Part shown: piece after piece, positions 16,014 to 61,392 of the stretch
Position numbering within the stretch: the first letter of the stretch is position 1
How the letters are laid out: each line of letters begins with the position of its first letter
NCBI GenBank assembly: GCA_029933125.1
Contig: JAOZOU010000001.1
Span: 392,702 to 456,701, forward strand
Length of the DNA stretch: 64,000 nt
Direction of reading: 5' to 3'
Source: a bacterium
GTDB taxonomy: Bacteria > Arandabacterota > Arandabacteria > Arandabacterales > Arandabacteraceae
Made by a program: the position numbers and the translations under genes
The notes under the pieces: generated by a model
Database searches by the model: none
What the model saw: only the letters and a program-made list of their open reading frames with translations
What the model was told of the DNA's origin: nothing

Positions 16014-16020
16014 CCCCTTC

Positions 16021-28898: not shown

Positions 28899-31232
28899 GT
28901 GAAAACCGGATTTCGTTGCGCGCTCATTGGGCTATTTTTCTTTCTGAGTTTTTCGAACATATCGCTAAGTGCCCCTCTTGGTGATACCCTAACAGTCATC
29001 CAGAGACCAATCCTCAATATCCCTGCCATTGTAAGACCAGGTGATACCTTGAAGATTGAATGTGAGGCTGCAGGTGGTGCAGGTGGATGGGCGGCAGCCC
29101 TGGCTAGAGGCAGCGTGACTATTCCCCTGCCAATTATTGAATCCTCTTACGATGCTTCAACTCTGTGGTGGGAAATAGATGCCCTTGTACCAGATGTTCG
29201 CACATATGAACTTTACGATCTCATTGTGAGGTCTACCTCTCTGGTAGATACTGCTCGCCATGCTGTCAAGATTATACCTGAGTTCAAGACTGACTACTAT
29301 TTCATCCACATCACCGATACCCATCTGCCCACCCACCTTTATTACTTCGAGAACGGTGCAGCAACAGATACTTCGGAGATAGCAGACCTTAGAGAGGTCA
29401 TCAAGGATATCAATATCATCAATCCCGAATTTGTGCTCATAACTGGTGATCTAGTCAATGAGGGTGAGCTAGAAGATTATCTTTCGAGGAGGTATTTCAG
29501 TCGTGCTCAGCATCTCCTTCAGGAATTCCAATTACCCATATACCTCACATCTGGCAACCATGATATTGGGGGTTGGGGCGCCACCCCACCCCCTGATGGT
29601 ACAGCTCGCAAGAACTGGTGGAAATTCTTCGGCTGGAAGCGGCTTAACAATCCTCCCCAAGGCGCACCTTATTACACTCAGGATTATACATTCAACTATG
29701 GCAAGGTTCACTATGTCGGACTCGAAGCTTATATCAACTATGATGGCTGGCGGAGCCAGATATACGGAAGCCAAAGCTTCACAACAGGACAGATGCAATG
29801 GCTGGTTGCTGATCTTTCCCAATCTTCTGCCCCAACCAAGGTTCTCTTCTATCACCGCGACTTTTCCCACCAGATAAATCTGAGTCGTCTTGGAGCTGAC
29901 ATGGCCCTATCTGGTCACATCCATCGTGATGTGGATGATTTCACTCCTCCATATGACATTGCCACCAACAATGTCTGCGATGGTGAAAGATCCTATCGCT
30001 TGATAAGGGTTTCAGATGGCGAGCTCCAACCAGCGCGTACCATCTCAGCCGGCACTGATGGCCGCAATCTTGATGTGAGATACGAGCCATCCAATGACGG
30101 GAGCAACTATGTTGTCACCGCCCTTATAAGCAATAGATTCAATCAACGTTTTGAGAATGCGATGCTGCGATTTTCTATGCCTAATGAAGGCGGTATCAAG
30201 ACTGTCGAGGGGGGCGATCTCTTCCAAATAGAAACAAATGGTGAATATGCCACCTGGTATGTTAATGTTGACATCCATCCAACCTCCGAACAGAAAGTGA
30301 TTGCAAGGCTCGATGTAGTTCCGTCAACTCCACCAAGTGTGACTGTGGTTCAGCCAAACGGTGGCGAGCAGTGGAGTGTCGGCTCAAGGCATGAGATCGT
30401 GTGGAATGCTGAGGATGATCAAGGGATTGAGTCGCTTGACATCCTACTCTCAGGCGATGGTGGGCTTTCATTTGCTGATACGATCGCATCTGGGCAACCT
30501 GACAGTGGCTCCTTTCTCTGGACCGTTTCTCCACTTTCCACATCGCAAGCACGCATAAAGATCGTCGCTCATGATGTAGAAGGGAAAACAGGAGAGGACA
30601 TTAGCGACAATAACTTTTCAATACTTGATATTACACCTCCCGCAGTTACGCTTTATGAGCCCCAGGGTGGTGAGATCTGGGCAATTGATTCCATATATAC
30701 CATAACCTGGTCCGCAAGCGATGACGTAGATGTGACAGCAATTACGATCCTTCTTTCGCGAGATGGCGCTCTGAGTTTTCCCGAAACGTTGGTAACCAAT
30801 GAGACCAACGATGGCACTTATGACTGGAAGGTTTGTGGCGAGCCGACCCGACATGCAAGGGTGATGATAATCGCCTCCGATGAAAGCGGAAATGCTTCGA
30901 GTGATATGAGCTTGAGTGACTTTGAGATCTATGATTCTTCCGCGCCAGGTTCCGAGATCCCTTCTGGGGTTATCATAAGGGCGAGCGCGCCTAATCCCTT
31001 TGATCAGACACTCGTCATCGACTTTGGAATACCAAGTGATGGACAAGTTGATATATCACTCCTTGATGTTAGAGGAAGAAGGGTTTCTCGAGTTGTTGAG
31101 AGAACCTACACTGCGGGATATCACAGGATCGTCTGGACACCTCAAGGTAATCTTAAGCCGGGCATCTATTGGCTTGTTGTTGAGATGGGAGATAGGGTAG
31201 CAGCCTGTAAGATCGTTCGCCTTAGAACTTAA
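28899..31232 (+). CDS. Secreted calcineurin-like metallophosphoesterase with tandem Ig-like domains and a T9SS-type C-terminal sorting domain.
   Basis: It has a signal peptide and the metallophosphatase motifs FIHITDTH, ITGDLVNEG and LTSGNHD. Two internal repeats of about 100 aa follow (VTVVQPNGGEQWSVGSRHEIVWNAEDD and VTLYEPQGGEIWAIDSIYTITWSASDD). The C-terminus NPFDQTLVIDFGIPSDGQVDISLLDVRGRRV...GIYWLVVEMGDRVAACKIVRLR is a Por/T9SS-type C-terminal domain. Confidence 0.75.
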   Translation: MKTGFRCALIGLFFFLSFSNISLSAPLGDTLTVIQRPILNIPAIVRPGDTLKIECEAAGGAGGWAAALARGSVTIPLPIIESSYDASTLWWEIDALVPDVRTYELYDLIVRSTSLVDTARHAVKIIPEFKTDYYFIHITDTHLPTHLYYFENGAATDTSEIADLREVIKDINIINPEFVLITGDLVNEGELEDYLSRRYFSRAQHLLQEFQLPIYLTSGNHDIGGWGATPPPDGTARKNWWKFFGWKRLNNPPQGAPYYTQDYTFNYGKVHYVGLEAYINYDGWRSQIYGSQSFTTGQMQWLVADLSQSSAPTKVLFYHRDFSHQINLSRLGADMALSGHIHRDVDDFTPPYDIATNNVCDGERSYRLIRVSDGELQPARTISAGTDGRNLDVRYEPSNDGSNYVVTALISNRFNQRFENAMLRFSMPNEGGIKTVEGGDLFQIETNGEYATWYVNVDIHPTSEQKVIARLDVVPSTPPSVTVVQPNGGEQWSVGSRHEIVWNAEDDQGIESLDILLSGDGGLSFADTIASGQPDSGSFLWTVSPLSTSQARIKIVAHDVEGKTGEDISDNNFSILDITPPAVTLYEPQGGEIWAIDSIYTITWSASDDVDVTAITILLSRDGALSFPETLVTNETNDGTYDWKVCGEPTRHARVMIIASDESGNASSDMSLSDFEIYDSSAPGSEIPSGVIIRASAPNPFDQTLVIDFGIPSDGQVDISLLDVRGRRVSRVVERTYTAGYHRIVWTPQGNLKPGIYWLVVEMGDRVAACKIVRLRT

Positions 31233-31252
31233 GCAAATGGGGATTCAGAGGA

Positions 31253-31849
31253 ATGTCTAAAACAGAATCAGGAGTAATCTGCATCCTTGGAAGCCCGAGG
31301 CGAGAGGGCAACACTGACAGACTTGCAAGCGAATTCCTGAAGGGTGTGGAAAGCAAGGGCTATCACTCAAGAGTGATAATCCCGACCGAGCTCGATATAA
31401 GTTGGTGTGACGGCTCCAATCAGTGCTTCCGTGATGGGCTATGCATCATTCGTGATGGAATGAATGAGATCTATGAGGAAATCCTAGAGGCGTCGCATCT
31501 CGTAATTGCGACACCTGTTTACTTCATGGGTCCACCTGGATCACTTAAATCCTTTATCGACCGCTTCCAGGCTGTCTGGGCACGTACAGCGATTCTAAAG
31601 ACCTTTGATCCAGATGATGAGCTCTGGCGCTCGAAACACAAAGCCTTTGTCATCATTGCAGCTGCATCTGAAAAGCCAAATATGATTCGTCCTACGAGGA
31701 GCATTTTGAAAGCCTTTCTCAACATAATAGGTTTCACCTACGCTGGGGAGCTCATAGCAACTGGCCTCGACCGAAGAGGCGATGTTCTGATTCGCGAGGA
31801 TCTCCTCAAGAAGGCTTATGAGGCTGGCTCTTGCTTTGTAGGATCATAG
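31253..31849 (+). CDS. NADPH-dependent FMN reductase / flavodoxin-like fold protein.
   Basis: The N-terminus ICILGSPRREGNTDRLA and HLVIATPVYFMGPPGSLKSFIDR are typical of the FMN_red/flavodoxin_2 family. It is probably co-transcribed with the upstream gene (20-nt gap). Confidence 0.7.
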   Translation: MSKTESGVICILGSPRREGNTDRLASEFLKGVESKGYHSRVIIPTELDISWCDGSNQCFRDGLCIIRDGMNEIYEEILEASHLVIATPVYFMGPPGSLKSFIDRFQAVWARTAILKTFDPDDELWRSKHKAFVIIAAASEKPNMIRPTRSILKAFLNIIGFTYAGELIATGLDRRGDVLIREDLLKKAYEAGSCFVGS

Positions 31850-31906
31850 CTAAGAAGTTCACCAGATTTTGAAAGCCTTAGTGCACAAGCACATTCCTGG
31901 GACTTC

Positions 31907-33058
31907 CTACTTAAGCATCTCCGCAGGACGTGTAAAGTCCCTGTAGAGGCTAAAGCTTGAGAAGATATCCTGCGCTATGATTGGCTTGCCGGTTGTCATG
32001 AGGCTAACAATATTCCTGGCGATGCCAGGTCCCAACATGAGCCCCTGTCCACAGAAGCCAACCGCAACAAAGAGGGTTTCACTCCCCTCAAGGCGATCAA
32101 CTATAGGCACGCCATCTGGTGTCATCGGGTAAAGACCACGCCATGTGCGTCTTACCCTGATATTTCTCAATCTTGGGAAGAGGCGAATCAGGCGCCTTGC
32201 TGCCTGAGGTAGAAACCCAGAAGTTGCATTGCGACTGAAGCCGGGTATGATGGGATCTGGTGTGAGGCAAAAAACAATGTGCCCGCCTTGCTCCTGATAG
32301 AAATAGAAATTCTTTGAGCCCGGGAATCTTCTCATATCAACAACGAGAGGCTTGAAGAAAGTTTGCACAGGTTCGGTGACACCACCCTCGTGGCAGTCAG
32401 GTTCGACGGGAAGATCAACGCCCATGAGTTTGCCAACCCGGTATGCATTAGCGCCAGCAGCATTAAGAACCTTCCCGGTTGAATATGAACCCTTGGTGGT
32501 GACAACATCAACTGACTTACCCCTATCCTTTATTCCTACAACCTTCTCACCAAATGCAAACTCGACGCCAATCTTCAACGCCTGGCGATAGAATGCTCGG
32601 TTGGCAAGTAAGGGTGAGACATTTCCATCCTCGGGTGAATAGGTACCACCGCGTAGACCATTTCCATCAAGTCCTGGCAGAAGTTTGAGGATTTCATGGC
32701 AATCCAGCCAGTCGATGTTCAACCCGTAGCGCTTCTGGACCTTTAGAAGTTCCTTGAGACTGTTCTCATCGTCCTCGTCATAGACAGGAAAGCAATAGCC
32801 ACCCCTCTGGAAATGGATATCATCGCCATAGGTCTCCTTCCAGGTGCTGAAGATTTCGAGACTGAGCTGGCAAACCTGGATCTTGGCAGGGTCCGAATGA
32901 GTTGCCCTTACCCCACCAATTGCGCTCTTATTCTGGCCCTGGCCAGGCGAAACAAGTTCATCTACGACAAGGACTCGGAGTCCCTCCTTACCAAGAAAAA
33001 AGGCGGTTGGCAGACCCACGCTACCAGCTCCAATAACCACTACATCGTAAGATGCCAT
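31907..33058 (-). CDS. FAD-dependent oxidoreductase of the DAO family (SoxB/HcnC/OoxB-like beta subunit).
   Basis: The N-terminal dinucleotide-binding motif is YDVVVIGAGSVGLPTAFFL. The 383-aa product lies 5 nt downstream of the alpha-like subunit. Confidence 0.7.
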   Translation of the reverse strand: MASYDVVVIGAGSVGLPTAFFLGKEGLRVLVVDELVSPGQGQNKSAIGGVRATHSDPAKIQVCQLSLEIFSTWKETYGDDIHFQRGGYCFPVYDEDDENSLKELLKVQKRYGLNIDWLDCHEILKLLPGLDGNGLRGGTYSPEDGNVSPLLANRAFYRQALKIGVEFAFGEKVVGIKDRGKSVDVVTTKGSYSTGKVLNAAGANAYRVGKLMGVDLPVEPDCHEGGVTEPVQTFFKPLVVDMRRFPGSKNFYFYQEQGGHIVFCLTPDPIIPGFSRNATSGFLPQAARRLIRLFPRLRNIRVRRTWRGLYPMTPDGVPIVDRLEGSETLFVAVGFCGQGLMLGPGIARNIVSLMTTGKPIIAQDIFSSFSLYRDFTRPAEMLK

Positions 33059-33063
33059 CTCGT

Positions 33064-35148: not shown

Positions 35149-35422
35149 CGCTATGGCTGCCTTCCCATATCAATCAGCCATCGAGTAACTGCCTATGTTC
35201 AATGGCGTTAGCATACATCCAGATATCCTTGTGATGATAACATTGAAGCAGGCGATAGTCAAAACTCATAAAATTCCCATTGCGGGCAAATGTTACCCTG
35301 GATTCGCCATCCTGCTTGTGAGCTTGAAACACACGACAGGCAAGAATTGACACAGCCATGAGCGAGTGATAAACTCACCGAGTTCTTTGTGAAGAATATG
35401 GCGCTCATCTGGAGAAGAGCTC

Positions 35423-36544
35423 ATGAAACTATTCTTCCACCATATTGCAATTGGGTTTTGTGTTATCATCACTTCCGGGATATGTTTTGGCGCAGCCTCA
35501 ATAACCTCCGTCACGGCAATTGATACCCCAGACGATGCTGGTGAGAGCATTATGCTTGAGTGGGAGGCGACGGGGGAGAGCCCCATAATCATAACGCGGG
35601 CGCCTAAGCCTGAAGGCCCCTTCGAAGTGATCGGTAAAGGACTGGCATCTGATGGTCATTACACTGACAATGGCGTAGAGGATGGGAAACCCTATTACTA
35701 CCGCATTGGAATTGTCACTGATCACGATACGACTTATACCACCGCAGCAGGGCCTGCCATATCCAAAAGTAACTGGTTTCGTAAGCATCGCCTCAATGCT
35801 CTGATCCTCACAATCCTAATGTTCGCACTTCTTGTCTACTTCATTGAGGCAGCGAAGAAGGGTAAGAACCTTTACATAAGGCGCATAGCAGGACTGAGTG
35901 CGCTTGAGGAGGCAATAGGCAGAGCAACTGAGATGGGAAAGAAGATTCTCTATATTCCTGGTATCCTAAGTATCAGTGAGATTCAGACAATTGCAAGCCT
36001 TTCCATCTTGGGATACGTGGCCAAACTCACTGCTACCTATGGTGCTAACATGGAAGTCCCCAACATCGATCCCCTCACATATTCGGCTGCCCGTGAGACA
36101 GTGAAGCAATCCTATATGGAAGCAGGTAAGCCTGATAAGTTCAGGGATGATATGGTCACATACATTACCTATGATCAGTTTGCTTATGCAGCTGCGGTTA
36201 CCGGTAAGATGGTAAGAGAGAGGCCTGCTGCTCACTTCTTCATAGGTTCCTTCTATGCTGAATCCCTGATTCTTGCTGAAACTGGCTACAGTACTGGCGC
36301 TATCCAGATTGCCGGCACAGCCGATCTTGCCCAGCTTCCCTTCTTCGTTACAACGTGCGATTACACTTTGATCGGTGAGGAACTCTATGCAGCAAGCGCT
36401 TACCTTTCACGTGAACCAGTGCTCCTCGGTAGCATAAAGGCGCAGGATATCATCAAGGCCATTCTTATGATGGTGATTGGCGCTGGAATCATAAGTTTCG
36501 CCTTTGGATCTGAGTTCATACGCAATCTTCTCCTCACAAAATAA
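35423..36544 (+). CDS. Membrane protein of unknown function with an Fn3-like ectodomain.
   Basis: It has a signal peptide, an extracytoplasmic domain of about 90 aa with W...YYYRIG hallmarks, a transmembrane helix, and a conserved-looking cytoplasmic domain of about 230 aa ending in a second hydrophobic helix. No family is recognised. Confidence 0.5.
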   Translation: MKLFFHHIAIGFCVIITSGICFGAASITSVTAIDTPDDAGESIMLEWEATGESPIIITRAPKPEGPFEVIGKGLASDGHYTDNGVEDGKPYYYRIGIVTDHDTTYTTAAGPAISKSNWFRKHRLNALILTILMFALLVYFIEAAKKGKNLYIRRIAGLSALEEAIGRATEMGKKILYIPGILSISEIQTIASLSILGYVAKLTATYGANMEVPNIDPLTYSAARETVKQSYMEAGKPDKFRDDMVTYITYDQFAYAAAVTGKMVRERPAAHFFIGSFYAESLILAETGYSTGAIQIAGTADLAQLPFFVTTCDYTLIGEELYAASAYLSREPVLLGSIKAQDIIKAILMMVIGAGIISFAFGSEFIRNLLLTK

Positions 36545-36563
36545 GAAACGCCAGCCTTGCGTA

Positions 36564-36770
36564 TCACTCTGTTCCCGTGCTTTTCCCCTGCAATGCTGGC
36601 CATTCAGCGAATGCGAGGTAAAAGATCATGACAAGATTAACAATTGGTAGGACCATGAGAAGTGAAAGCGCTCCAGGGAATCCAGCCTTGCTGAAGATAC
36701 GCCAGAATGGTAAGACCACAATAAGCGCTATCAGAATCATCGACAAGAGTATGCTGCCTGCAGTCACCAT
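36564..36770 (-). CDS. Small two-transmembrane membrane protein of the DUF5684-like type.
   Basis: It is 68 aa with the motif WRIFSKAGFPGALSLLMVLPIVNLVMIFYLAF, which is typical of a widespread family of tiny membrane proteins. Confidence 0.45.
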   Translation of the reverse strand: MVTAGSILLSMILIALIVVLPFWRIFSKAGFPGALSLLMVLPIVNLVMIFYLAFAEWPALQGKSTGTE

Positions 36771-36892
36771 CTTCGCCCTCCTTTGCAGAAACGATTAGCG
36801 CGGCACCCAATGTGGGCAATATGTTTCTCATACTGCTATTTAGCTCCACAATACCGCCGGGAGATCTGAGAAACTCCTGATGAGTGTGTAGC

Positions 36893-37486
36893 CTAAGGTT
36901 TCCACACCTCCCAGACTTTGCCAACAAGCCCTGGTCCAGGCTTCAGAGTAACCTGCCCGACCTGCCACCCCGATGGTGTCACCTCGCCTGTGTTCCGCAC
37001 ATGCTGAAATGCCTTTATCTGACGAATGAGCTCATCAGGATTACGGCCCACCTCCGGTGTCAGGACTTCCATTGCACGAATCACAAAATCGGGATCGATT
37101 ATGAAACGCCCTCTGATATCAACACCAGCCGCTTCATCATAAACACCATAGATTGCTCCAATCCTGCCGCCGGCATCCGAAAGCATGGGGAAGGGAACAC
37201 CACCCTCAACCATCTTTGAAAGCTCCTGCTCCTGCCAGATCTTATGAACGAAACGGCTATCGGTACTCATTGAGAGCACTTCAACTCCCATTGCCTTAAG
37301 CTCCTGATAGCGGGCAGCGACCGCTGCCAATTCTGTCGGTCAGACAAATGTGAAGTCACCAGGATAGAAGCAAAGCACAATCCATTGACCCTTGTAGTCG
37401 GATAGTTTTACTGGCTTGAATCCATAGTCTCTTACAAATGCGGTAGCTTCAAAATCAGGAGCTGGTTTGCCAACTCTTGCAATCAT
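36893..37486 (-). CDS. Selenocysteine-containing peroxiredoxin (AhpC/Prx1 family, PrxU-like), with an in-frame UGA at the peroxidatic Cys position.
   Basis: Two collinear in-frame ORFs are separated only by TGA at 37340..37342. The joined product reads [14 protein letters not shown]...[34 protein letters not shown], which matches the FYPxDFTFVCPTE peroxiredoxin active site. An AGGAGG ribosome-binding site lies 7 nt before the ATG at 37486. The C-terminal resolving Cys is absent (GEVTPSGW), so this is a 1-Cys/Sec type. Confidence 0.8.
37313..37328 (-). promoter_or_regulatory. Putative SECIS hairpin 11 nt downstream of the in-frame UGA.
   Basis: The mRNA reads UGA-CCGACAGAAUU-GGCAGC-GGUC-GCUGCC, giving a perfect 6-bp GC-rich stem with a GGUC apical loop (G/U-containing, as in bacterial SECIS elements). 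Confidence 0.45.
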
Positions 37487-37827
37487 CCCGACTCCTCCTG
37501 AAAGCTTTCTTCCCCCGTATGCCTCTCCCGCTTCTTCCTCAGGGAGCAGCGGACCCCTTGCAGGCTGGACACATCCATCCTTAAGCTCTGCCATAGCCAC
37601 CTCCTCGTTTAAGAGCGACCTATTCTCGAAATGACACCTTTGGCTAATCTTGAATCCGTAACAATCCTGTCAACTTTCTCCTTATAGCTCAAACCAAAAC
37701 CTCGTAAAGGTCAATCGGATTTTTGGCAATCGCAATATCGCTGGGCCCAAGGGTAGGATGCCAACATGCGGATATACTTACCAAGGGAAAGATCCTAGCC
37801 CTGCATGAAGAACTGCTAACCCTCTTC

Positions 37828-37850
37828 GAAGGCTCCGTCAAGGAGCCTTC
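37828..37850. other. Perfect 9-bp inverted repeat (GAAGGCTCC-N5-GGAGCCTTC) in the intergenic region between the M1 peptidase and the peroxiredoxin. It may be a terminator or a regulatory hairpin.
   Basis: The repeat is visible in the sequence and has no flanking U-tract on either strand. Confidence 0.3.
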
Positions 37851-37882
37851 CTTCGGCAAGATGCCTTATCCTAGGCCAAACC

Positions 37883-40606
37883 TTACTTGATCAGCACGAG
37901 CTTGCGCCTTAGGGCACGGTCATCAACCTTGAGCAGGTACCAGTAGACACCTGATGCAACATTCTCCCCCCACCTGTCGCGCCCATTCCAGCTAACAGTA
38001 TGGTTCCCCGCATCCATGACTTCATCCACGAGTCTTGTCACTTCTCTCCCTCTCACATCGTAGATGCTGAGGAGAACACGAGCCCTATTCGAGAGACTAT
38101 ACTTAATGCGGGTCGCGCTCACGAATGGGTTTGGAGTATTTTGCCCAAGCCAGATACGGGGTTTGATTTCATCAGCTATGCCACTCGGATTATAGGGCTC
38201 ACCAAAGAAGTTGCGAAGGATGAACTCACAATTGCTACGCATTGCATCATGGTCATAGCGATAAGGACGCCCAGCGATGAAAACGAACTGTCCGCCGTCC
38301 GCTCGCTGAGTTCCGCCAGAGGAAGGATTGCGCCAGACACCAAGCCCACGTGGGATTGGAAACATATTATATTGCATGAACAATACAGTGCTTTCATCGC
38401 CAACAGATGCTGAATCAAAAACAGCATTATAGGTCTGGGAACCGCCCGAGCGCGGCATATCAACGAGTCCAGGATAAACGCTCGTTGCTCGGCGTGTTGT
38501 GTTCTCCTTATCCTCCGCCCACTGGATGTCAAGATAGGCTCTTAAGGCTTCGTAAATAAAGTCCTGACCCATGCGCGTAAGAAGCAAGACGTTGCCGCCC
38601 GCCTTAAGATATGAAACTATTGGAGCATTGTACCAGGCAGTTAGATCACCATTGTAGTTGTTGCCTACCCAGACAACCGATGAGAATTGCTTGAGTGTAT
38701 CGGCGGGAATGTCACCATGTCCAAGAGGTTGTGGGAGCGGTGAAGGATAGCCACCAGCAGGCTCAGCAAAGATATCCCAGAAGGATATGTCAAGTGACCC
38801 CCAGAAGATACTATCTTCATAAGCCGAAGTTATCTCAGTGCCATAAGTGTTCCAATCAACCCCATTGACAACAAGGATACCACGATCGAAGGTTGCATCC
38901 TTAAGCTCCTCAGAGACCATGCGCAGAATCCATTCATCCTTGTCAAGTTGAACATCCTGTGGTTCATCACTTACAAGAAGCGTAAATTGCTGACTCGCAA
39001 GGCTATCTTCGACAACGAGTGTGGTCTCCCCTGATGCTGTTGTAACACTTATCTGGATAGGCATATTAAAGATCTGATTCTCTTGTAGCCGGTCAATCGT
39101 CAACGATATTTCATAGCCATCTACAACTGGCTGATAATCCCAAGAAAACATGTAATGCGGGAAACCCTCCCCATATATCCACTCCTGGAAGAAGGCATCG
39201 AAATCTCTTCCAGCAACCTGCTCGCAGATATCTCTGAATTGCTCCGTGGTTGCTGAACCATACTGATATTGGCTGTTATAATAAGCATGGAGAATATCGA
39301 AGAAAGTTGAATCCCCCACAATTCCCCTCAACATATGGAGTACCCAGGATGCTTTGTTGTATGACAGATCCGGATCGAAGATACGATCCCAATCAGAAAG
39401 GTCGGGCACGTAGATTGTGCCTGGTCCGTAATACTTAGCATATTCCATTTGATTCTTATATTCGTCCCACCCGTATTCATGTTCTGCCCAGAGCGCTTCA
39501 CTGTATGTTGCAAAGCCTTCATTGAGCCAGATGTGATTGAAGGTATTGCAGGTTATCATATCTCCCCACCACTGATGCGAAAGCTCATGAAGCACAAGAT
39601 ACTCGCCCCAGCCCCAGAGGCTGGTAATCGTCTGGTGCTCCATGCCACCACCCCATGTAAACTCCGCCTGACCGTATTTTTCCTCGATGAAGGGGTACTC
39701 ACCATACAGATTGGCAAAAAGACCAATCATATCGGTTATCTTGGCATAGTTGGTTACACAATCAGGATAGTGGCTAGCGAAAACATAGTGGCGAATTTCC
39801 ATCGAATCAGTAGGTGAATAGTGATAGTAATCGGAATAGACGATGTAGGGATGAATTGCTACAGAGACAAGATAAGTAGCTATGGGATAGCCTTCGTGCC
39901 ACTTGTAGGTCTTTGTGCTTCCATTGTCGATGGTTGCTCTGAGAACCCCGTTTGAAGCATCAATAAGATTGCTAGGCACTGTGATCCAGATATCAACCGA
40001 GTCTGGCTTATCGTTGGGATAATCCTTGCAAGGCCACCACGTTCTTGCCCCAAATGGCTCACTCAGGCTCCATATCATATCCTCGCCATCGAAGGACTCG
40101 AAAGCAAAGGCACCAGCCGAAGACGATGGAGTGCCATGATAATAGACTGTAAAGGAAAAGGCCTCACCTGTTGAATAGGAGCGGTCAAGATTGACAGTGA
40201 GGATGTCGTTGGCATGGCTGAAGGTGAGATTACCGCTCGCAGATGTGATACTGTCCACAGTCATGTTGGAATAGAGGTCAACATCGACTTGAGAAAGCGG
40301 TCCAGTAGTAACCTCAGCCCTCATCTCGACCCCGCCTGAAACCGTTTGAGTTGCTGGATCTATGTTGAGATCAAGATGATAGTACTTGGCATCGTAGCAA
40401 TTCTGATTTGGCGTAGGCTCCGTTGCAAGAGCCTCCATGCGGGCAAAGAAACGTGCCTTTGCCTCCGCAACCTGGCAGGCTATGTCACCAGGGCGCTCTG
40501 GTTGTATCCACCTTGGCTGGGGTTGTGCAAGCCCAAGCACAGAGAAAGAAATCACGAAGGCAACAAGAAAGCAAAGCTTGAAGACCAAGTGAGTTTGATG
40601 TCCCAT
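37883..40606 (-). CDS. Secreted M1-family zinc aminopeptidase with a T9SS-type C-terminal sorting domain.
   Basis: The HEXXH-X18-E zinc motif is present (VLHELSHQWWGD...WLNEGFATY). It has a signal peptide (start placed at MGHQTHLVFKLCFLVAF). The C-terminus is NPFVSATRIKYSL...LLSIYDVRGREV...GVYWYLLKVDDRALRRKLVLIK. Confidence 0.85.
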   Translation of the reverse strand: MGHQTHLVFKLCFLVAFVISFSVLGLAQPQPRWIQPERPGDIACQVAEAKARFFARMEALATEPTPNQNCYDAKYYHLDLNIDPATQTVSGGVEMRAEVTTGPLSQVDVDLYSNMTVDSITSASGNLTFSHANDILTVNLDRSYSTGEAFSFTVYYHGTPSSSAGAFAFESFDGEDMIWSLSEPFGARTWWPCKDYPNDKPDSVDIWITVPSNLIDASNGVLRATIDNGSTKTYKWHEGYPIATYLVSVAIHPYIVYSDYYHYSPTDSMEIRHYVFASHYPDCVTNYAKITDMIGLFANLYGEYPFIEEKYGQAEFTWGGGMEHQTITSLWGWGEYLVLHELSHQWWGDMITCNTFNHIWLNEGFATYSEALWAEHEYGWDEYKNQMEYAKYYGPGTIYVPDLSDWDRIFDPDLSYNKASWVLHMLRGIVGDSTFFDILHAYYNSQYQYGSATTEQFRDICEQVAGRDFDAFFQEWIYGEGFPHYMFSWDYQPVVDGYEISLTIDRLQENQIFNMPIQISVTTASGETTLVVEDSLASQQFTLLVSDEPQDVQLDKDEWILRMVSEELKDATFDRGILVVNGVDWNTYGTEITSAYEDSIFWGSLDISFWDIFAEPAGGYPSPLPQPLGHGDIPADTLKQFSSVVWVGNNYNGDLTAWYNAPIVSYLKAGGNVLLLTRMGQDFIYEALRAYLDIQWAEDKENTTRRATSVYPGLVDMPRSGGSQTYNAVFDSASVGDESTVLFMQYNMFPIPRGLGVWRNPSSGGTQRADGGQFVFIAGRPYRYDHDAMRSNCEFILRNFFGEPYNPSGIADEIKPRIWLGQNTPNPFVSATRIKYSLSNRARVLLSIYDVRGREVTRLVDEVMDAGNHTVSWNGRDRWGENVASGVYWYLLKVDDRALRRKLVLIK

Positions 40607-40836
40607 GGCATACTCCTTCCTGTTTAGAAACTGCGAGCGTTGCACAAATGGCTTAGCCAGATAATTCTCACACATCAAACTGCAACAGTTCAATTATACC
40701 ACAACCAGGCACTTTTGCATAGACGCATAGGTGCGCATTACCCCAGGTTGGGGTTGGAATTGTATCGAGCAAGAAAAGGGGATATCGGAGGCGCCCGTCC
40801 TGTTCGTTGGCTGATGATTGAGCCTATTGCGAGAAG

Positions 40837-42408
40837 CTACTTGACAACACCGATCTTAACCACCAAACTTCTCTGGCGTGTCTTTATCTGGCAGAAGTAG
40901 ATTCCCGAGCTAATGCGAGAACTTCCACCCTCTAAAGTGCTTAGATCAAGCAGGAGAGCATTGCTCATCCCATCCTGAATGGGTCTAAGTGAGCATATGA
41001 ATCTACCCATGATATCATAGAGCCTTGCAGACCTCACGGATTGCGCGGACAAAGTTTCAGGGAGCTCGAGAACCATACCTCTGTCACTCAGGCGCTTACA
41101 AGAAAGTGTACGCGGTAGGTAATCGGATGATGCCTTCCAGCCGTGGACTTCCAAGCCGTTATCTTGCCGAGAAGCGAGACTTTCGCCAGCCAGATCGCGT
41201 GGCCTAATCCTTGAACGGCAAGCAGGATTGGTAAGCACCTCATCAATATTAGCTACCTTGAGCCTCTTCCCTACAGCGTAGTCGATAATGTCAGATAGCA
41301 TGCTTGTCTCGATACACCACAATCCGTAGCAGGTATCGGCAACAACATGATTGTTGAGGATATACCACAAGCCATCGTCGGCGGCAGCATCGATATATTG
41401 CCGATAATGATTGAGAAGCCAGTAATCCTGGCTGCAATAAGACTTGAGGAAACATCGATTCATTAGGATCGGAAAGCGATTTAATGCATCATCCCCAAGC
41501 CTGCATGACTCGTAATAGTGGCGTACACTATCAATAACTGTATCGTTGTATGCAGAATAGGGAACGGCAAAGTGCTTAACAGGAAATCCCATCTTCTCCA
41601 GTATTTCCTTGGATAGCGTGAGCTCCTTCATCAAACTGTCACCGCTTATCTCAGTGAGTCTTGGATGCGTCATACTGTGACTGCCGATATCCCACCCGGC
41701 TGCCTGGAGTGCATGCAGTTCATTCCAAGTCAAATATCCGGGCTTTTCAAGCCACGTTGGGACAACATAGGCAGTTGCTGTCACATTCTTGCTTTCAAGA
41801 AGCGGCAGAGCGTATTCATAGAGGCTGCTTGAGCCATCATCGAAGGTGAGGGTGAGCACCCCAGTGTATCCTGAAACCGCCACTCTTCGCGTTAGTGTCC
41901 TGCCATCGCCCAGGTGAATAGTCACACGGACAGCATAGTCAATGGGTTGAGTGAAGGTGTGGGTGACCTTAATGCCCGTCGCATCAACGATACCATCATT
42001 TTCAAAATCCCATAGGATCTCGCTTTCGCCCTCAGGATCAAGGATCACTTCAAAATCAACAGCGAAGGGAACTACACCCCAATTGGTAGAAGCTTTAATT
42101 TTGACCTGTGATGTGGGCTCTGTGCAACCCGTCGGCTCAACGGGAGCTGCTGCTTGAGTGTCCGAATAAAGGGGTACCGCGAGAAGCATGGTAATACCTA
42201 AAGCAGCTGCTATGGAAAGTACAAAGGCCCACCCGCTTACGTTTCCCCCAGCTTTAACAAAAGATAGGTCAGGTGGGGTGCCATGATCCTGGTCTGGCCT
42301 TGCCTGTTTAGGCCCCTTGTTACAAAGGTGGGCAGGGATGGCTGTTAAGGCTTTTCTCAGGGGATTCGAGACCTCGGAAAATGGGGCATTGCTCTCCATG
42401 ACACGCAT
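40837..42408 (-). CDS. Secreted polysaccharide deacetylase (NodB/CE4 domain) with a PKD-like domain and a T9SS-type C-terminal sorting domain.
   Basis: The NodB motifs LTLTFDDGSSS and WDIGSHSMTHPRL are present. A PKD-like segment (ILWDFENDGIVDATG) precedes them. The C-terminus is LYDIMGRFICSL...SGIYFCQIKTRQRSLVVKIGVVK. The start codon is uncertain. Confidence 0.75.
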   Translation of the reverse strand: MRVMESNAPFSEVSNPLRKALTAIPAHLCNKGPKQARPDQDHGTPPDLSFVKAGGNVSGWAFVLSIAAALGITMLLAVPLYSDTQAAAPVEPTGCTEPTSQVKIKASTNWGVVPFAVDFEVILDPEGESEILWDFENDGIVDATGIKVTHTFTQPIDYAVRVTIHLGDGRTLTRRVAVSGYTGVLTLTFDDGSSSLYEYALPLLESKNVTATAYVVPTWLEKPGYLTWNELHALQAAGWDIGSHSMTHPRLTEISGDSLMKELTLSKEILEKMGFPVKHFAVPYSAYNDTVIDSVRHYYESCRLGDDALNRFPILMNRCFLKSYCSQDYWLLNHYRQYIDAAADDGLWYILNNHVVADTCYGLWCIETSMLSDIIDYAVGKRLKVANIDEVLTNPACRSRIRPRDLAGESLASRQDNGLEVHGWKASSDYLPRTLSCKRLSDRGMVLELPETLSAQSVRSARLYDIMGRFICSLRPIQDGMSNALLLDLSTLEGGSSRISSGIYFCQIKTRQRSLVVKIGVVK

Positions 42409-42573
42409 TCTCCCTTCCCTGGTAGAATGTAAGTGGATCCCATTGGCTCAAAGCCATGGTGATGTCATCTTTTTTCACCATGTCCCGCACCGAGCTTCAT
42501 TCCGACTTCTACTACCCTCCTTTAATCAAATTATCACATCCTTGTCAAGTAGCGAAAGTCAAAGCGGGTTGCA

Positions 42574-42602
42574 TTGAAATGCAGGCGCATTTATGGTAAA
42601 AT
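42574..42602 (+). promoter_or_regulatory. Predicted sigma-70 promoter for the C25 peptidase gene.
   Basis: TTGAAA (-35), a 17-nt spacer and TAAAAT (-10) are followed by a GGGAGG ribosome-binding site before the ATG at 42678. Confidence 0.45.
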
Positions 42603-42677
42603 GGCAAAAATAGATAGCGAGGTCAGATCTGATTCGTATCCTCGCCCCGCATAGACCACCGAGCTGGGAGGATAGCT

Positions 42678-45600
42678 ATGCGTAAGTCATCCCCGATCTT
42701 TTTGTTACTCAGCCTCTTTGCAGTCACTTCAGTAGCAGGTCCCCCTTCCCCAAAGTGGGTAGGGTTAGGAGGTAAGCCCTATCAGGCACAACCCCAAGTT
42801 GAAGTCAGCACTCAATTCTCTGAAGAAATTGTCATCCAGGTCAACATGGCAGGCTTCATTGCAGACCGCGTTGAGTCAAAAGTCGGTTGGTTTGCATCGA
42901 TTGAGATACCCGGCTGTGGCCAGACCAATGCGATTGGCAAAGCCAGACTTCCAGTTCTAAGGCGTGCCATTGAGATACCTCAGGGAGCAGCTCCTAATGT
43001 CGAGGTCATAGAATACACTACCACCACATACGCACTCGCCGATCTCAACCTTCCGCCAAGGATCTACCCAGTTCAACCCCCGATTGAGAAGATTCCAGGA
43101 GCCAGGCAAAGAGCTCCGTTTAAGATGTCCGAATCTTTTTATGCCTCCTCCAAGCCCTATCCTTCCTACAAGGCATGCATTGTTGAGATTGGGCAGATGC
43201 GTGGGCACAGATTTGCTGTTCTCGAGATCCCTGCAGCTATTTACATCCCAGCCTCAGGTACTTTGGAGATTGTGACAAACATAGGTTTGAGAGTCACCGT
43301 TAAAGGAGCGGATGAAGCAGCCACACGAGCAACAATTGATCGTTACGCTTCACCCTATTTTGAAGCCATTGCCTCAAAAGCACTTCTTAACTACAAGCAT
43401 CCGACAATTAAGGCCATCCCTCAAGCGCCTGTCGGCTTTCTTGTCATCACTTCACCAGACTACTACACAGAAATTCTCCCACTTGCTGAGTGGAAGAGCC
43501 AGCGAGGCTATTACACCACTGTCACTCAAACACCAGACATACCAGGCGGCGCAACTACGACAGCGATCAAGTCCTACATTCAAGATGCCTATGAGAATTG
43601 GGATGTCCCGCCAACCTTCGTGCTCCTGGTTGGAGATGTCGATGCCATTCCCAACTGGACAGGAACCGAGATTGACAATCCTCCAACCGATCTGTATTAC
43701 ACCACCATGACTGAACCCGACTACATCCCCGACATTGCAATTGGACGTATCTCAGTATCAAGTGCTACCGAAGCACAGGCTGCGGTCGGAAAGATCCTCA
43801 ACTATGAGAAGCGCCTTTTTAGCCACACCTCATGGCTTAAAAAAGCGGTCTTCATGGCCTCTGAAGACAACTGGGACATAACAGAGGGCACCCACAACTA
43901 TGTCATATCCACCTATATGGATCCTGCAGGTTTCACATCTCTGAAGCTATATTGCCACACCTACAATGCTACAACCCAGGATGTCAGCGATGCTTTCAAT
44001 GAGGGAACAGGCCTTGGAATCTACTCAGGTCATGGTGCAACGACCTACTGGGCGGATGGACCTCAATTCATGCAAAGTAACGTTGCTGCCCTAACTAATC
44101 TCGATATGTATCCCTTCGTTCAGAGCTATGCTTGCCTCACAGGGAGATATACCGAAGCCGAATGCTTCGCCGAAACATGGATCAGGCAGGCTGACAAAGC
44201 TGCAGTTGGCTTCTGGGCATCATCGGTGACCTCCTACTGGGATGAGGATGACGTACTTGAGAAGGGTGTTTTCAAGGCACTCTTCGAAGATAGCCTTACC
44301 TGGATTGGCGGGATGATAGACCAGGGCAAGTGGCATCTTTATGAATATTATGGAGGTGCTGGCTCAACCAGGCGCTATTATGAGATGTATAATCTCCTTG
44401 GGGATCCATCAGTTGATATTTGGACAGATGAGCCCCACACTATGGATGTTGCCTATGCAACAGCCATCCCGGTTGGTGCGACGAGTTACGAAGTCCATGC
44501 GAGCGAGAATTCAACCCCTCTTCCAGATGCAATGGCTTCGCTTTTCTGGCCAGGTACACTCTTCGGCAGTGGCTATACGAATTCGAGCGGTGATGCAATG
44601 CTCGACCTCAATCCAAGCCCGAATGAGCCAGGTGAGATGATTCTCACCCTGACACACCACAACTTCACTCCTTTTAGTGATACGCTTCAAGTTGTTGTCC
44701 CTGCTACTGTCGTGATAGATCCGGATACGATTGAAGTTGGGGTCACAACAGCAGTTAGTGTGGCTGTGCTTGATACGCTTTCTGCTCCAGTGGAAAGCGT
44801 CGAAGTGACAATTGATGGTTGGGGAATTGAACCGCCTCTGCATGATACTACAGATGCTTCAGGCCAGGCCTACTTCAGCATTAGCGCCCCATACGGCGAG
44901 GCTCTCTCGGTCAAGGGAAGCAAACTCAATCAATCCTATGATCTCTTCAATGATTCGCTATATGTTGTCGGAGCAATTGCCCTACCCAACCCTGCGATTG
45001 AAGCTCGTGTTGATGCCGTTGGTCTTGTCGGCGCTCTCACACCCGATTTTGAGGGAACGATCGTGGGTAGAAGCGACCACGCAGGCCTCGACATCTTTGC
45101 CAGAGGCTGTGGCATTGACACTTCAGCTTCTTCATCCTCAGACTCAGTCATAGTCGCTGCCACGCCAGATTGTGTCGGTCAAGTCAAGGTTGCTTTAGCT
45201 TCTCCAGGCTATGAGGTCTATGAAGATGAGATCAGCGTGATCATTGCCTACGGAACACTTGCAGGCACAGTACTGGACTCAACCACAGCTCAACCCATCG
45301 AAGGTGCCTTGCTGAGGGCTTATCCATCTGGCTCAGATACCTCGAGTACTCCATCATCCTTTGAAACGTTAAGTCAGGCTGATGGATCATATGCCTCGAG
45401 CGATAGTCTTCGCGTCGGCGCATATCAAGTCTATTCAACCAAGTTCGGCTATCTTGCTTCTGCTGGCTCAACCATGATCCGGGTGGGTGCAAACACCTAT
45501 GACATCCTCATGATTCCAGCCCCTGCTGGGATTGTCACCGGTACAGTGACTGAGGAAGGCACAGGTAAACCCCTGAGTGCTACACTTGAGATATATCGGA

Positions 45601-47459
45601 GTGATGACATGTCGCTTTACTCCGAGGCAACCTCGGATTCGCTTTCGGGTGGAAGTTACACAACTGAGCCCCTCCCTTACTTCACGTATGTGTTCACAGT
45701 AAAAGCAACGCACTACATAACAAAGAGCATCAATGTGACTGTTGCTGAAAGCACCCAAACAGTCAACTTTGAGCTTACACCCACTGAGGGCAATCTGCTT
45801 GTAATCGATGATGACACAGGGGATTTGCTTGCCGAGGTGAAGGTGGGTGAGAAAGGTGAAACCTTATCAAGCCTCACAAGGGCACTTGACTACGAGGCTA
45901 AATCCTCGGCTAGTCTCATCGCTGAGGATCTCGCCTCGCTTGGCTATGATGTGACAACTCAGAGTTCAGCGGCAACCGATCCAGCTACCTGGCAAGACTA
46001 CGACCTTATCATCTGGAGCTCAGGTGATGATACTTCCCCTGTTTCTGTTTCATCTTACCGTAGCAATCTCAACTCCTATGTTGCATCGGGGGGCAAACTT
46101 CTCATCGAGGGCGGTGAGATTGGCTATGATGCTGCTTCAAGCCCTGGTTATCCAAATCTCGCCGATACCACCCTCCATATTGTGGAGTGGCAGCATGATT
46201 CATCCGGAGATCTTTCACTCGCCATGCCAAATCATCCAGTCGCTACAACTCCGAACATTCTACCTTCTACCATAACGATGAGCTATGTTGGATACGGTGA
46301 TGAGGATGCTTTGACGGGTGATGCACAAACCCAGGCCATCTTTGAATGGAGTTCCTATCCTGGACTCGCTGGTGTGTTCGCATATGACAATAACCCTGAT
46401 ACCACAAGCTGCCAGATAATCTTCTTCTCCTTCGACTACTCAAATGCGGCTGATTCAACTTCTCGAGTCAATCTACTTGAAAACGCCGTTTCCTATCTTC
46501 TGAGACCCGAGCCCGGCGCTGAGGGTTCAATCAGTGGCATCGTTGAACTCTATGGCGAGACAAACTATGAGGGCACGATCGTCAGGCTTAGCCCTATGGG
46601 ACTTGCCGACACTACGGATGCAGCTGGTAACTATTACATCTCAGGTCTCTTTGATGGTGCATACAAGGTTACCGCAACAAAGCAAGGTTTTGCTGATTCG
46701 AGCCGAACAGTTGTGATTTCGGGTGGATCACACGTCGGCGATGTCAATTTCACTCTTTACCCAGTAATAGAGTACATGGACAGTCCAGAGATCGCCATAC
46801 CCGATAATGATCCAGCTGGCATAAGGGCTTACATCAATGTCGATGCCGACCAGCCAATTGCTTCCGTCGATTGTTATGTCAACATCTCCCACACTTATGT
46901 TGGTGATCTCATAGTTGAGCTCACATCGCCGGAAGGATCGACTGTCAGGCTTCACAATCGAACAGGTGGATCAAGTAATGACATAGTAACCTGGTACGAT
47001 ACGGATACTGAGCCTGATGGTCCTGGAACAATGTCTGACTTTACAGGTGAGATTGCAGCAGGCCAATGGGAGCTCTGGGTAAGCGATCAAGCTGGTGCAG
47101 ATACTGGAACGCTCCATACCTGGGGACTTCATCTAAGCTTCCCTTGGACAAGTGCAGGGCTAAGTCAAGGCACAGAAATTTACGTTACCCGTCTTATAGG
47201 TATAAGCCCCTTGCCGTTATCAAGCTGCGCCAGCTTCACTTTTTCCCTTGCAAAGGCTGAGCAGGTGGATATAGCAATTTACAATGTTTGTGGGCAGCGC
47301 CTTGCAGAGATCACTTCTGCAAAGTACGAACCTGGGCTTCATTCGCTCATCTGGAGAATAGAGAATCAAGAAAGACAGAGTTTAGCAAGCGGTATTTACT
47401 TCTGTCGTTTCAAGGCGGGTGAGTATCAAACTACAAGGCGCATCGTCATAATACGGTAA
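42678..47459 (+). CDS. Giant secreted gingipain-like cysteine peptidase (family C25) with CarboxypepD_reg-like repeats, a proprotein-convertase P-domain and a T9SS-type C-terminal domain.
   Basis: It has a signal peptide and a propeptide. The C25 catalytic region is FLVITSPDYY...LLVGDVDAIPNWTG, with His in YSGHGATTYW and Cys in SYACLTGRYTE. Three GT(V/I)xD-type beta-sandwich repeats follow. A P-domain-like segment reads VNISHTYVGDLIVELTSPEGSTVRLHNRTGG. The C-terminus is SGIYFCRFKAGEYQTTRRIVIIR. Confidence 0.85.
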   Translation: MRKSSPIFLLLSLFAVTSVAGPPSPKWVGLGGKPYQAQPQVEVSTQFSEEIVIQVNMAGFIADRVESKVGWFASIEIPGCGQTNAIGKARLPVLRRAIEIPQGAAPNVEVIEYTTTTYALADLNLPPRIYPVQPPIEKIPGARQRAPFKMSESFYASSKPYPSYKACIVEIGQMRGHRFAVLEIPAAIYIPASGTLEIVTNIGLRVTVKGADEAATRATIDRYASPYFEAIASKALLNYKHPTIKAIPQAPVGFLVITSPDYYTEILPLAEWKSQRGYYTTVTQTPDIPGGATTTAIKSYIQDAYENWDVPPTFVLLVGDVDAIPNWTGTEIDNPPTDLYYTTMTEPDYIPDIAIGRISVSSATEAQAAVGKILNYEKRLFSHTSWLKKAVFMASEDNWDITEGTHNYVISTYMDPAGFTSLKLYCHTYNATTQDVSDAFNEGTGLGIYSGHGATTYWADGPQFMQSNVAALTNLDMYPFVQSYACLTGRYTEAECFAETWIRQADKAAVGFWASSVTSYWDEDDVLEKGVFKALFEDSLTWIGGMIDQGKWHLYEYYGGAGSTRRYYEMYNLLGDPSVDIWTDEPHTMDVAYATAIPVGATSYEVHASENSTPLPDAMASLFWPGTLFGSGYTNSSGDAMLDLNPSPNEPGEMILTLTHHNFTPFSDTLQVVVPATVVIDPDTIEVGVTTAVSVAVLDTLSAPVESVEVTIDGWGIEPPLHDTTDASGQAYFSISAPYGEALSVKGSKLNQSYDLFNDSLYVVGAIALPNPAIEARVDAVGLVGALTPDFEGTIVGRSDHAGLDIFARGCGIDTSASSSSDSVIVAATPDCVGQVKVALASPGYEVYEDEISVIIAYGTLAGTVLDSTTAQPIEGALLRAYPSGSDTSSTPSSFETLSQADGSYASSDSLRVGAYQVYSTKFGYLASAGSTMIRVGANTYDILMIPAPAGIVTGTVTEEGTGKPLSATLEIYRSDDMSLYSEATSDSLSGGSYTTEPLPYFTYVFTVKATHYITKSINVTVAESTQTVNFELTPTEGNLLVIDDDTGDLLAEVKVGEKGETLSSLTRALDYEAKSSASLIAEDLASLGYDVTTQSSAATDPATWQDYDLIIWSSGDDTSPVSVSSYRSNLNSYVASGGKLLIEGGEIGYDAASSPGYPNLADTTLHIVEWQHDSSGDLSLAMPNHPVATTPNILPSTITMSYVGYGDEDALTGDAQTQAIFEWSSYPGLAGVFAYDNNPDTTSCQIIFFSFDYSNAADSTSRVNLLENAVSYLLRPEPGAEGSISGIVELYGETNYEGTIVRLSPMGLADTTDAAGNYYISGLFDGAYKVTATKQGFADSSRTVVISGGSHVGDVNFTLYPVIEYMDSPEIAIPDNDPAGIRAYINVDADQPIASVDCYVNISHTYVGDLIVELTSPEGSTVRLHNRTGGSSNDIVTWYDTDTEPDGPGTMSDFTGEIAAGQWELWVSDQAGADTGTLHTWGLHLSFPWTSAGLSQGTEIYVTRLIGISPLPLSSCASFTFSLAKAEQVDIAIYNVCGQRLAEITSAKYEPGLHSLIWRIENQERQSLASGIYFCRFKAGEYQTTRRIVIIR

Positions 47460-56270: not shown

Positions 56271-56735
56271 CTAGGCAGCAATTATCTCATTTATGATAGC
56301 AGCGAGCTCGTGCGCTGCATTCTCCACGGCTTCACTCATCGCCTCACCCACTCTCGTTGTCTCGGGCTGTATGGCGAGAAAGAAAACTGTAGCTCCCGAC
56401 TGACACTCAATGTAGTCAGAAAAAATGGTAAGAATTGCATCGTGGGTCGATGCTCCACCACCAGTTATTTGCTCCTTACGAACAAGCCTGATTTCACCAG
56501 GTTTGCCCCCAAAGTAGGCAGCATCGATTATCACTACCTTCTCAGGTTTGAGATTTGCTATCTTGCCCAGGAAATTCTCAGGCGTCTCCCCACAATTTAT
56601 GACCTTCACCCTATCTGTTTCCTCAATAAGCCGAGCAAGCAGAGGTCCCACTGCATCATCTCCACGCATCTCATTACCGATGCAGGCAATTACAACCTTC
56701 CCTGAAAGAATGCTGGCGAGGGCTGTTCGATCCAT
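56271..56735 (-). CDS. hycI: [NiFe]-hydrogenase maturation endopeptidase of the HycI/HyaD family.
   Basis: It has VVIACIGNEMRGDDAVGPLLA and the CGETPENF/IIDA pattern, and lies at the end of the hydrogenase operon. Confidence 0.8.
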   Translation of the reverse strand: MDRTALASILSGKVVIACIGNEMRGDDAVGPLLARLIEETDRVKVINCGETPENFLGKIANLKPEKVVIIDAAYFGGKPGEIRLVRKEQITGGGASTHDAILTIFSDYIECQSGATVFFLAIQPETTRVGEAMSEAVENAAHELAAIINEIIAA

Positions 56736-56753
56736 GTTGAGATGCGCCTTGCC

Positions 56754-58486: not shown

Positions 58487-58498
58487 ACCAACTCCCCC

Positions 58499-59980: not shown

Positions 59981-59992
59981 CGCTTCTCGCCC

Positions 59993-60340: not shown

Positions 60341-60352
60341 ACCTATCTCCTT

Positions 60353-61389: not shown

Positions 61390-61392
61390 ACA

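Follow-up and report, generated by a model that had tools for sequence, protein, structure and literature searches.

Are four large hydrolases, encoded near one another in a flagellated bacterium outside the Bacteroidota, cargo of a type IX secretion system (T9SS)? The question is raised by a 64-kb stretch of bacterial DNA (contig JAOZOU010000001.1, positions 392,702 to 456,701; "the window" denotes this stretch at its full length), in which an initial annotation made from the letters alone described a metallophosphoesterase (MPE), an M1-family aminopeptidase (M1), a CE4 polysaccharide deacetylase (CE4) and a gingipain-like C25 cysteine protease (C25) with a common C-terminal tail. The analysis presented here makes it fairly probable that all four hydrolases work outside the cytoplasm of an Eisenbacteria-like anaerobe, that each bears one C-terminal domain (CTD) of the T9SS type A family in addition to a Sec signal peptide, and that they are secreted by the T9SS route. 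Membership of the tails in the T9SS type A/FlgD-Ig-like CTD family, as first proposed, is supported by TIGR04183, by profile matches in the PDB, by the predicted fold and by the NCBI names of related proteins. Use of a T9SS by the host is probable, judging from the signal that its enzymes carry.

A homologous terminal domain on four hydrolases

The four large hydrolase open reading frames (ORFs) are present in the window's ORF list with the coordinates and lengths first reported for them, and their catalytic domains and common terminal domain were likewise borne out (Table 1). All four proteins end in one homologous domain of ~85-90 aa that finishes 0-1 residue from the C-terminus, the single trailing residue being a T that follows the basic end of the MPE tail. 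The curated NCBIfam model TIGR04183 (T9SS type A sorting domain, cut-off 23 bits) is passed by the MPE, M1 and C25 tails, with margins of only 1-2 bits, and is failed by the CE4 tail. A first hidden Markov model (HMM), built from the four C-termini themselves and run against 756 six-frame window ORFs, returned exactly these four proteins plus the window's own FlgD; because that test is circular, the profile was rebuilt from the tails of 32 homologues with the window sequences left out. On this independent profile the M1 tail, the most canonical of the four, scores highest, followed by C25, MPE, FlgD and CE4, and the tail-domain E-values of the four enzymes are 3e-27, 1e-24, 2e-18 and 9e-6. Chance or composition might be invoked for the likeness of the four C-termini in view of their low pairwise identity (only 15-32%), yet this is refuted by the independent-profile E-values, by a high-confidence fold prediction and by the retention of the tail in orthologues, and we give the idea next to no weight.

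The initial annotation had described the tails by a set of motifs that includes NPF. The common domain stands, whereas NPF occurs in MPE and M1 only, C25 having SPLPLS in its place and CE4 no counterpart. The four tails end in ...IVIIR, ...LVLIK, ...IGVVK and ...IVRLRT, the last strand of each containing K/R, and G44, G77 and Y79 of the profile are invariant across 36 tails, G44 standing within VCGQR in C25 and VRGR in MPE and M1. Two CTD motifs have experimental support in P. gingivalis (PMC11285876): a Gly that opens strand 4, and a Lys/Arg within the last strand. We equate G44 with RgpB Gly699, which is functionally required, through the DMNGRR motif and the strand position and not through a computed alignment. 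Both functionally tested motifs are thus conserved in the window tails, and by their sequence these residues may serve the same function here. The terminal position is equally strict among relatives: the tail is present in 94 of the 121 homologues of C25, and among homologue tails the domain reaches the last residue in 87 of 95, that residue being K or R in 92 of 95.

The CE4 tail is the diverged member, matching only the second half of the independent profile (positions 36-97). Its orthologues (n=16, 35-43% identity) have clear tails of 45-80 bits that end in ...VLR at the last residue. An AlphaFold2 (AF2) model of the window CE4 tail (pLDDT 76.5) is seven-stranded, and the three PDB entries ranked highest against it are T9SS CTDs (RgpB, NucA), all with weak scores. 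We accept this doubtful tail as a family member because of the orthologues with clear tails and because of the fold.

Table 1. Coordinates and supporting evidence for features of the window
Feature	Position	Strand	Basis
Metallophosphoesterase (MPE), 777 aa	28899..31232	+	ORF list, Pfam, TIGR04183
MPE tail, residues ~686-777	30954..31229	+	TIGR04183 25.3 bits, PF18962 20.3, independent profile 61 bits
M1-family aminopeptidase, 936-aa ORF	37883..40693	-	ORF list, Pfam, motifs
M1 tail, residues 843-936	37886..38167	-	TIGR04183 24.9, PF18962 15.7, FlgD_ig 29.5 vs 27, independent profile 90 bits
Probable over-extension of the M1 ORF	40606-40693	-	first start codon used as listed
CE4 polysaccharide deacetylase, 523-aa ORF	40837..42408	-	ORF list, Pfam, motifs
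CE4 tail	40840..41103	-	TIGR04183 18.2, PF18962 14.5, independent profile 21 bits
Probable over-extension of the CE4 ORF	42258-42408	-	length and N-termini of orthologues
Gingipain-like C25 cysteine protease, 1593 aa	42678..47459	+	ORF list, Pfam, structure-sequence matches
C25 tail, residues ~1504-1593	47187..47456	+	TIGR04183 24.3, PF18962 18.3, independent profile 82 bits
Genuine FlgD	15321-16202	-	PF03963 (N-terminal), PF13861 (Tudor), Ig domain; independent profile 32 bits
Flagellar gene cluster, complete	254-25259
DUF6754 membrane protein	35423-36544	+	381 bits
AhpC/2-Cys peroxiredoxin	36893-37669	-	AhpC-TSA 128 bits with U read as C
In-frame TGA codon of the peroxiredoxin	37342-37344	-
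Mbh/Mrp-type membrane-bound [NiFe] hydrogenase module and HycI protease	56271-63965

Catalytic domains and N-termini

The catalytic sites of the four enzymes are intact. MPE has a Metallophos domain at residues 135-343 (Pfam, E 1e-17) with its DxH/GD/GNH/GHxH motifs, two Ig-like domains (Big_7/Kre9-like) between the catalytic domain and the tail, and a signal-like N-terminus that is hydrophobic at residues 7-18. M1 matches Peptidase_M1 (E 3e-26) and Peptidase_M1_N and retains the zinc-site motifs GGMEH, HELSH and NEGFA; its middle region of 260 aa is unassigned. CE4 matches Polysacc_deac_1 (E 6e-24) and a PKD domain and retains the metal-site motifs TFDDG and HSMTH.

C25 is the most elaborate of the four. 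A putative signal peptide is followed by Propeptide_C25 (residues 37-239), the catalytic domain (254-579), the C25 Ig-like domain (586-665), three CarboxypepD_reg repeats, a proprotein-convertase-like P-domain (1395-1486) and finally the tail, and Pfam thereby confirmed the P-domain and the three carboxypeptidase-regulatory-like repeats noted at the outset. Peptidase_C25 (PF01364) is matched with E 1e-70 and 239 bits and P_proprotein with E 5e-20; the propeptide (PF08126) and Ig-like (PF03785) models also pass their Pfam thresholds. The catalytic domain aligns with the Kgp and RgpB structures (E 1e-39), His452/Cys486 falling on Kgp His444/Cys477, and the prodomain matches the Kgp prodomain 5mun (E 2e-22). 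The protein is not a PorU sortase: it scores 99.5 bits on NF033707, in the catalytic region only, against a cut-off of 420. An unassigned α/β domain common to M1 and C25 was considered and ruled out (BLASTP E 0.14); the segments concerned, searched on their own, had no Pfam match.

All four proteins have a hydrophobic, signal-like N-terminal segment, with uncertain starts for M1 and CE4. The M1 ORF as listed, from the first start codon, is probably over-extended, with the true start at Met30 (about 40606); read from there the protein would have a typical signal peptide, MGHQTHLVFKLCFLVAFVISFSVLGLA followed by QP, and the predicted cleavage between ...GLA and QP would leave Gln as the N-terminal residue. 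Over-extension is probable for the CE4 ORF as well. We place its start about 50-70 codons downstream because the CE4 orthologues are ~450 aa long, some 70 residues shorter than the listed ORF, with a signal peptide of typical form at residue 1.

Fold and distribution of the tails

In a search of the tail profile against the PDB, FlgD chains are best by E-value (2e-6) but cover positions 32-86 only, whereas the T9SS CTDs of 8glj_D (a translocon-bound substrate), PorU and RgpB align over positions 14-95, with the last strand included. The AF2 model of the C25 tail is of high confidence (pLDDT 94.8) and has seven strands. Its best PDB match in Foldseek is the PorU CTD 6za2 (TM 0.69), and the CTDs of PorZ, translocon-bound NucA and mirolase all rank above FlgD. 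The modelled seven-stranded Ig-like β-sandwich is therefore consistent with a T9SS CTD, without being exclusive to CTDs.

The distribution of related tails points in the same direction. In a tblastn search of 72,556 plasmids, the M1 tail matched only proteins of the Bacteroidota/Rhodothermota, from Rhodothermus, Salinibacter, Hymenobacter, Runella and Chondrinema, and for some of the genes concerned the annotation names a T9SS type A sorting domain; the best match, at 41% identity, is to a plasmid gene product of Rhodothermus marinus and falls at its extreme C-terminus. The closest tails in a collection of 5.8 billion proteins carry PF18962 together with PF13860 and are named "T9SS type A sorting domain-containing protein" by NCBI (Eisenbacteria, Zixibacteria, Calditrichaeota, Krumholzibacteria). 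Orthologues of the window enzymes carry precomputed PF18962 matches, unlike the window proteins. The family is large, with 518,168 cluster representatives at E ≤ 0.001.

Sorting signal, generic module or other apparatus

Several observations, some on the tails and others on the secretion machinery, weigh against T9SS-dependent secretion. Concerning the tails, PF18962 (Por_Secre_tail, Pfam gathering cut-off 27 bits) stays below threshold in all four window proteins and the margins on TIGR04183 are narrow. The initial annotation had named HMM searches of the four C-termini as the check on its claim and had regarded failure on CTD models as counting against it: on TIGR04183 CE4 alone fails, and on PF18962 all four do. 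The best PDB sequence matches of the tail profile are FlgD Ig domains, and the window's true FlgD outscores the CE4 tail on the independent profile (32 vs 21 bits). Generic Ig/Fn3 domains of the C5a-peptidase type come nearly level with CTDs in Foldseek for the C25 tail. The tail domain is also used as an internal tandem repeat in many proteins: the top profile scorers among 1.84 billion representatives (P0261-P0300) are proteins of 1,100-5,000 aa in which the core (~13-90) is repeated internally, in tandem, 8-15 times, so the fold also serves as an ordinary repeat module.

Some of these points would suit a tail that is a generic FlgD-type Ig-like module (structural, adhesive or a surface spacer) carrying no secretion signal, on enzymes that are periplasmic or otherwise exported. 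FlgD chains are the leading PDB sequence matches, proteins with many internal copies exist, the only Pfam tail model over threshold is FlgD_ig (PF13860, cut-off 27 bits), for M1 alone, many tails of this kind are labelled "flagellar hook assembly protein FlgD" by JGI, and no T9SS gene occurs in the sampled DNA. However, in FlgD and in the internal repeats only the core of the profile is matched (about positions 13-90), whereas single terminal copies match it end to end. The window tails are single, carry the K/R-type end at the final residue as in 87 of 95 homologues, and span the whole profile including the last strand, with CE4 restricted to the part given above. The same tail occurs on four unrelated enzyme families and their tested orthologues, which is how a sorting signal behaves, and the plasmid matches of the M1 tail are confined to phyla that have a T9SS. 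On this balance we judge a generic module unlikely.

Concerning the machinery, none of SprA, PorV, PorU or PorK/L/M/N is encoded in the 64-kb window, and no T9SS core gene was found in the ~90 kb of DNA sampled from relatives in the neighbourhood of their C25 and CE4 orthologues, a tiny sample that provides no evidence of absence. No PorU was found among the C25 homologues, in which eight paralogues reach 49-105 bits on NF033707 (cut-off 420) and all are cargo-like. A literature search returned no paper on a T9SS in Eisenbacteria. Because no core component lies in the window DNA, we infer T9SS-dependent secretion from the tail signal.

One relative (L088; GCA_964356335.1, CAYHHI010000007.1) has, at 6417-7538 (-), a 373-aa outer-membrane β-barrel candidate 2.5 kb upstream of its CTD-bearing CE4 orthologue; a protein of 301 aa comes after the barrel candidate and has a weak TPR match. 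The barrel candidate gives a partial, sub-threshold match to the PorV/PorQ family model NF033709 (E 2e-8, 34 bits vs a cut-off of 90) and passes TraF_2 (29 bits); it has no sequence match in the PDB, no plasmid match and no homologue in the window or the other loci. From its sequence, it is possible that this protein is a diverged T9SS shuttle protein of the lineage.

These findings also bear on whether the tail is a true sorting signal whose reader at the outer membrane is not a canonical Bacteroidetes-type T9SS but an export and anchoring apparatus that is strongly diverged or of another kind. Such an apparatus would fit with the marginal scores of the tails on Bacteroidetes-trained models, with the lack of a PorU-like sortase among the 120 best C25 homologues, with a sole PorV-like candidate far under threshold, and with the poor interchangeability of CTDs even between Bacteroidetes species (PMC11285876). 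Set against this, the absence of a canonical T9SS refers to the window and the relatives' loci and is not genome-wide, T9SS components are listed for several non-Bacteroidota FCB (Fibrobacteres, Chlorobi and Bacteroidetes) phyla (PMC11285876), both functionally tested CTD motifs are conserved in the tails, and the M1 tail shares 41% identity with a Rhodothermus CTD. We hold this explanation, too, to be unlikely. Doubtful to a somewhat greater degree is the broader proposal that Eisenbacteria-like bacteria have large families of FlgD-Ig/type-A-like tails, no canonical T9SS and another or diverged sorting apparatus in a flagellated cell; such a system might show the T9SS signal at an early point of its evolution out of a FlgD-like Ig domain.

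Under the preferred reading, secretion through a T9SS, the four enzymes would first be exported into the periplasm in a Sec-dependent manner, and the seven-stranded Ig-like CTD of each would then fold. A T9SS-type outer-membrane translocon would recognise the CTD via the conserved strand-4 Gly and the basic, hydrophobic last strand, after which the CTD would be removed and the enzyme either released or attached to the surface. Outside the cell, the C25 endopeptidase and the M1 aminopeptidase would plausibly digest proteins, CE4 would remove acetyl groups from polysaccharide, and phosphoesters would be the substrate of the metallophosphoesterase.

Comparison with known systems

The closest parallels are T9SS type A cargo proteins, such as the RgpB and Kgp gingipains, and the CTDs of PorU and PorZ. 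As in those proteins, a single seven-stranded Ig-like domain of ~80-90 aa stands at the extreme C-terminus of hydrolases with predicted Sec export, and the strand-4 Gly and the basic last-strand residue are present, with PorU, RgpB and NucA as the best structural matches. The window C25 resembles the gingipains in its prodomain, catalytic His/Cys dyad and Ig-like domain, and differs by parts not found in gingipains, namely the three CarboxypepD_reg repeats and the P-domain of proprotein-convertase type. The window further differs from known type A cargo in that its host is not a member of the Bacteroidota, its tails are nearer to the FlgD Ig domain by sequence, and a T9SS in this host is predicted from the tails.

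The Por-CTD glycoside hydrolases of Chitinispirillum alkaliphilum and the T9SS secretion of Fibrobacter succinogenes offer a parallel outside the Bacteroidetes, in that degradative enzymes with Por CTDs occur in anaerobic FCB hosts (PMC4814513, PMC11285876), and Chitinispirillum is flagellated like the window host. Those cases belong to another phylum and involve chitinases, whereas peptidases, a deacetylase and a phosphoesterase are found here, in an organism known from its sequence alone. The Ig domain of the FlgD hook cap (PF13860) has a β-sandwich core homologous to the tails. FlgD itself differs in having N-terminal FlgD and Tudor domains and an internal Ig domain in which both the first strand with PNPF and the basic strand at the end are missing; conversely, the four enzymes lack the FlgD N-domain, and PF03963 and PF13861 are found only in the true FlgD. 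The 32-bit score of that FlgD on the tail profile places the FlgD Ig domain and T9SS-type tails close to one another within one genome.

The initial annotation presented a non-Bacteroidetes host as surprising, which was overstated. T9SS components and CTDs are expected outside the Bacteroidota across the FCB superphylum (PMC11285876), CTDs are annotated in Eisenbacteria metagenome-assembled genomes (MAGs), and a polar-flagellated, anaerobic member of the Fibrobacteres with Por-CTD chitinases has been published (PMC4814513). Annotation pipelines already label such tails and reviews already anticipate T9SS in other FCB phyla, and current understanding is unchanged. If our reading is correct, one more uncultured FCB lineage would route extracellular proteolytic and polysaccharide-modifying enzymes by type IX-type signals. 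This would aid in reading the ecology of Eisenbacteria as degraders of proteins and polymers, and would help to trace the reach of the T9SS signal beyond the Bacteroidota and its relation to the FlgD Ig domain.

Host lineage

The nearest named C25 orthologue belongs to a Candidatus Eisenbacteria MAG (MFH1313086.1, GCA_043810925.1); it carries the annotation of a T9SS type A sorting domain-containing C25 peptidase, shares 58% identity over its full length, has the same 1593-aa architecture, and has as neighbours the flavodoxin, DAO and FAD/FeS oxidoreductase genes that also adjoin the window C25. Because of this identity and the common gene order, we consider the host to be Eisenbacteria-like. 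The sequence comparisons support a flagellated, non-Bacteroidetes candidate-phylum organism of the FCB superphylum, as had been anticipated. The best relatives of FlhA among species representatives are only ~50% identical (KSB1, Zixibacteria, Ignavibacteriota, Fibrobacterota), and a scan of metagenome contigs with the C25 protein returned one distant locus at 28% identity. The window sequence, part of an NCBI contig of 611,679 bp, was also assembled in Logan sample SRR21545388, whose contigs contribute no sequence past its right end.

Three further traits first ascribed to the host, flagella, a hydrogenase and a selenoprotein, were recovered as a flagellar operon, an Mbh/Mrp-type [NiFe] module and a peroxiredoxin gene with an in-frame UGA. 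The flagellar cluster is complete for export, hook and motor and holds genes including FlgG, FliA, FlhF, FlhA, FlhB, FliR, FliP, FliM/N, FliL, FlgE, FlgD, a FliK-like gene, FliI, FliG and FliF; together with the hydrogenase it is consistent with a motile, fermentative, H2-evolving anaerobe.

Gene arrangement

The four genes had been called a cluster, a term that proved too strong. They lie on both strands, and six unrelated genes separate MPE from M1: one for a flavodoxin-like reductase, two for FAD oxidoreductases, an ORF of 61 aa that is called in the Logan assembly only, the DUF6754 gene and one for a peroxiredoxin. CE4 is the direct neighbour of M1 and is read in the same direction, and C25 is transcribed divergently from CE4. 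By a rough estimate, four genes placed at random among the ~55 genes of the window would fall within 12 consecutive genes ~4% of the time. The arrangement is fragmentary in relatives: one retains the order from DUF6754 to C25, with another tail-bearing protein adjoining; the Eisenbacteria MAG retains the oxidoreductases and C25 without M1 or CE4, the window lineage having M1, CE4, DUF6754 and the selenocysteine-type peroxiredoxin inserted upstream of C25; a third shares nothing with the window upstream; and one CE4 orthologue stands alone. A conserved operon of four genes is ruled out, since relatives retain the gene order only in part. The four genes are a cluster only loosely, and their arrangement is not a functional or conserved unit.

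The DUF6754 membrane protein begins with a signal peptide and has a domain that resembles Fn3. In two relatives (L085, 5517-6656; L088, 1655-2788) a DUF6754 gene again lies within 3-8 kb of a C25 or CE4 gene that bears the tail, in two others it does not, and this linkage may simply be conserved gene order.

Other features of the window

The AhpC/2-Cys peroxiredoxin has its in-frame UGA at the position of the peroxidatic Cys, and gene callers split the gene into two ORFs. A GC hairpin (GGCAGC-GGUC-GCUGCC) lies ~11 nt 3' of the UGA and folds no better than shuffled sequence, and Rfam scans, which included selenocysteine insertion sequence (SECIS) models, gave no match. The window also encodes a σ54 two-component pair and a type II secretion system/type IV pilus (T2SS/T4P) ATPase.

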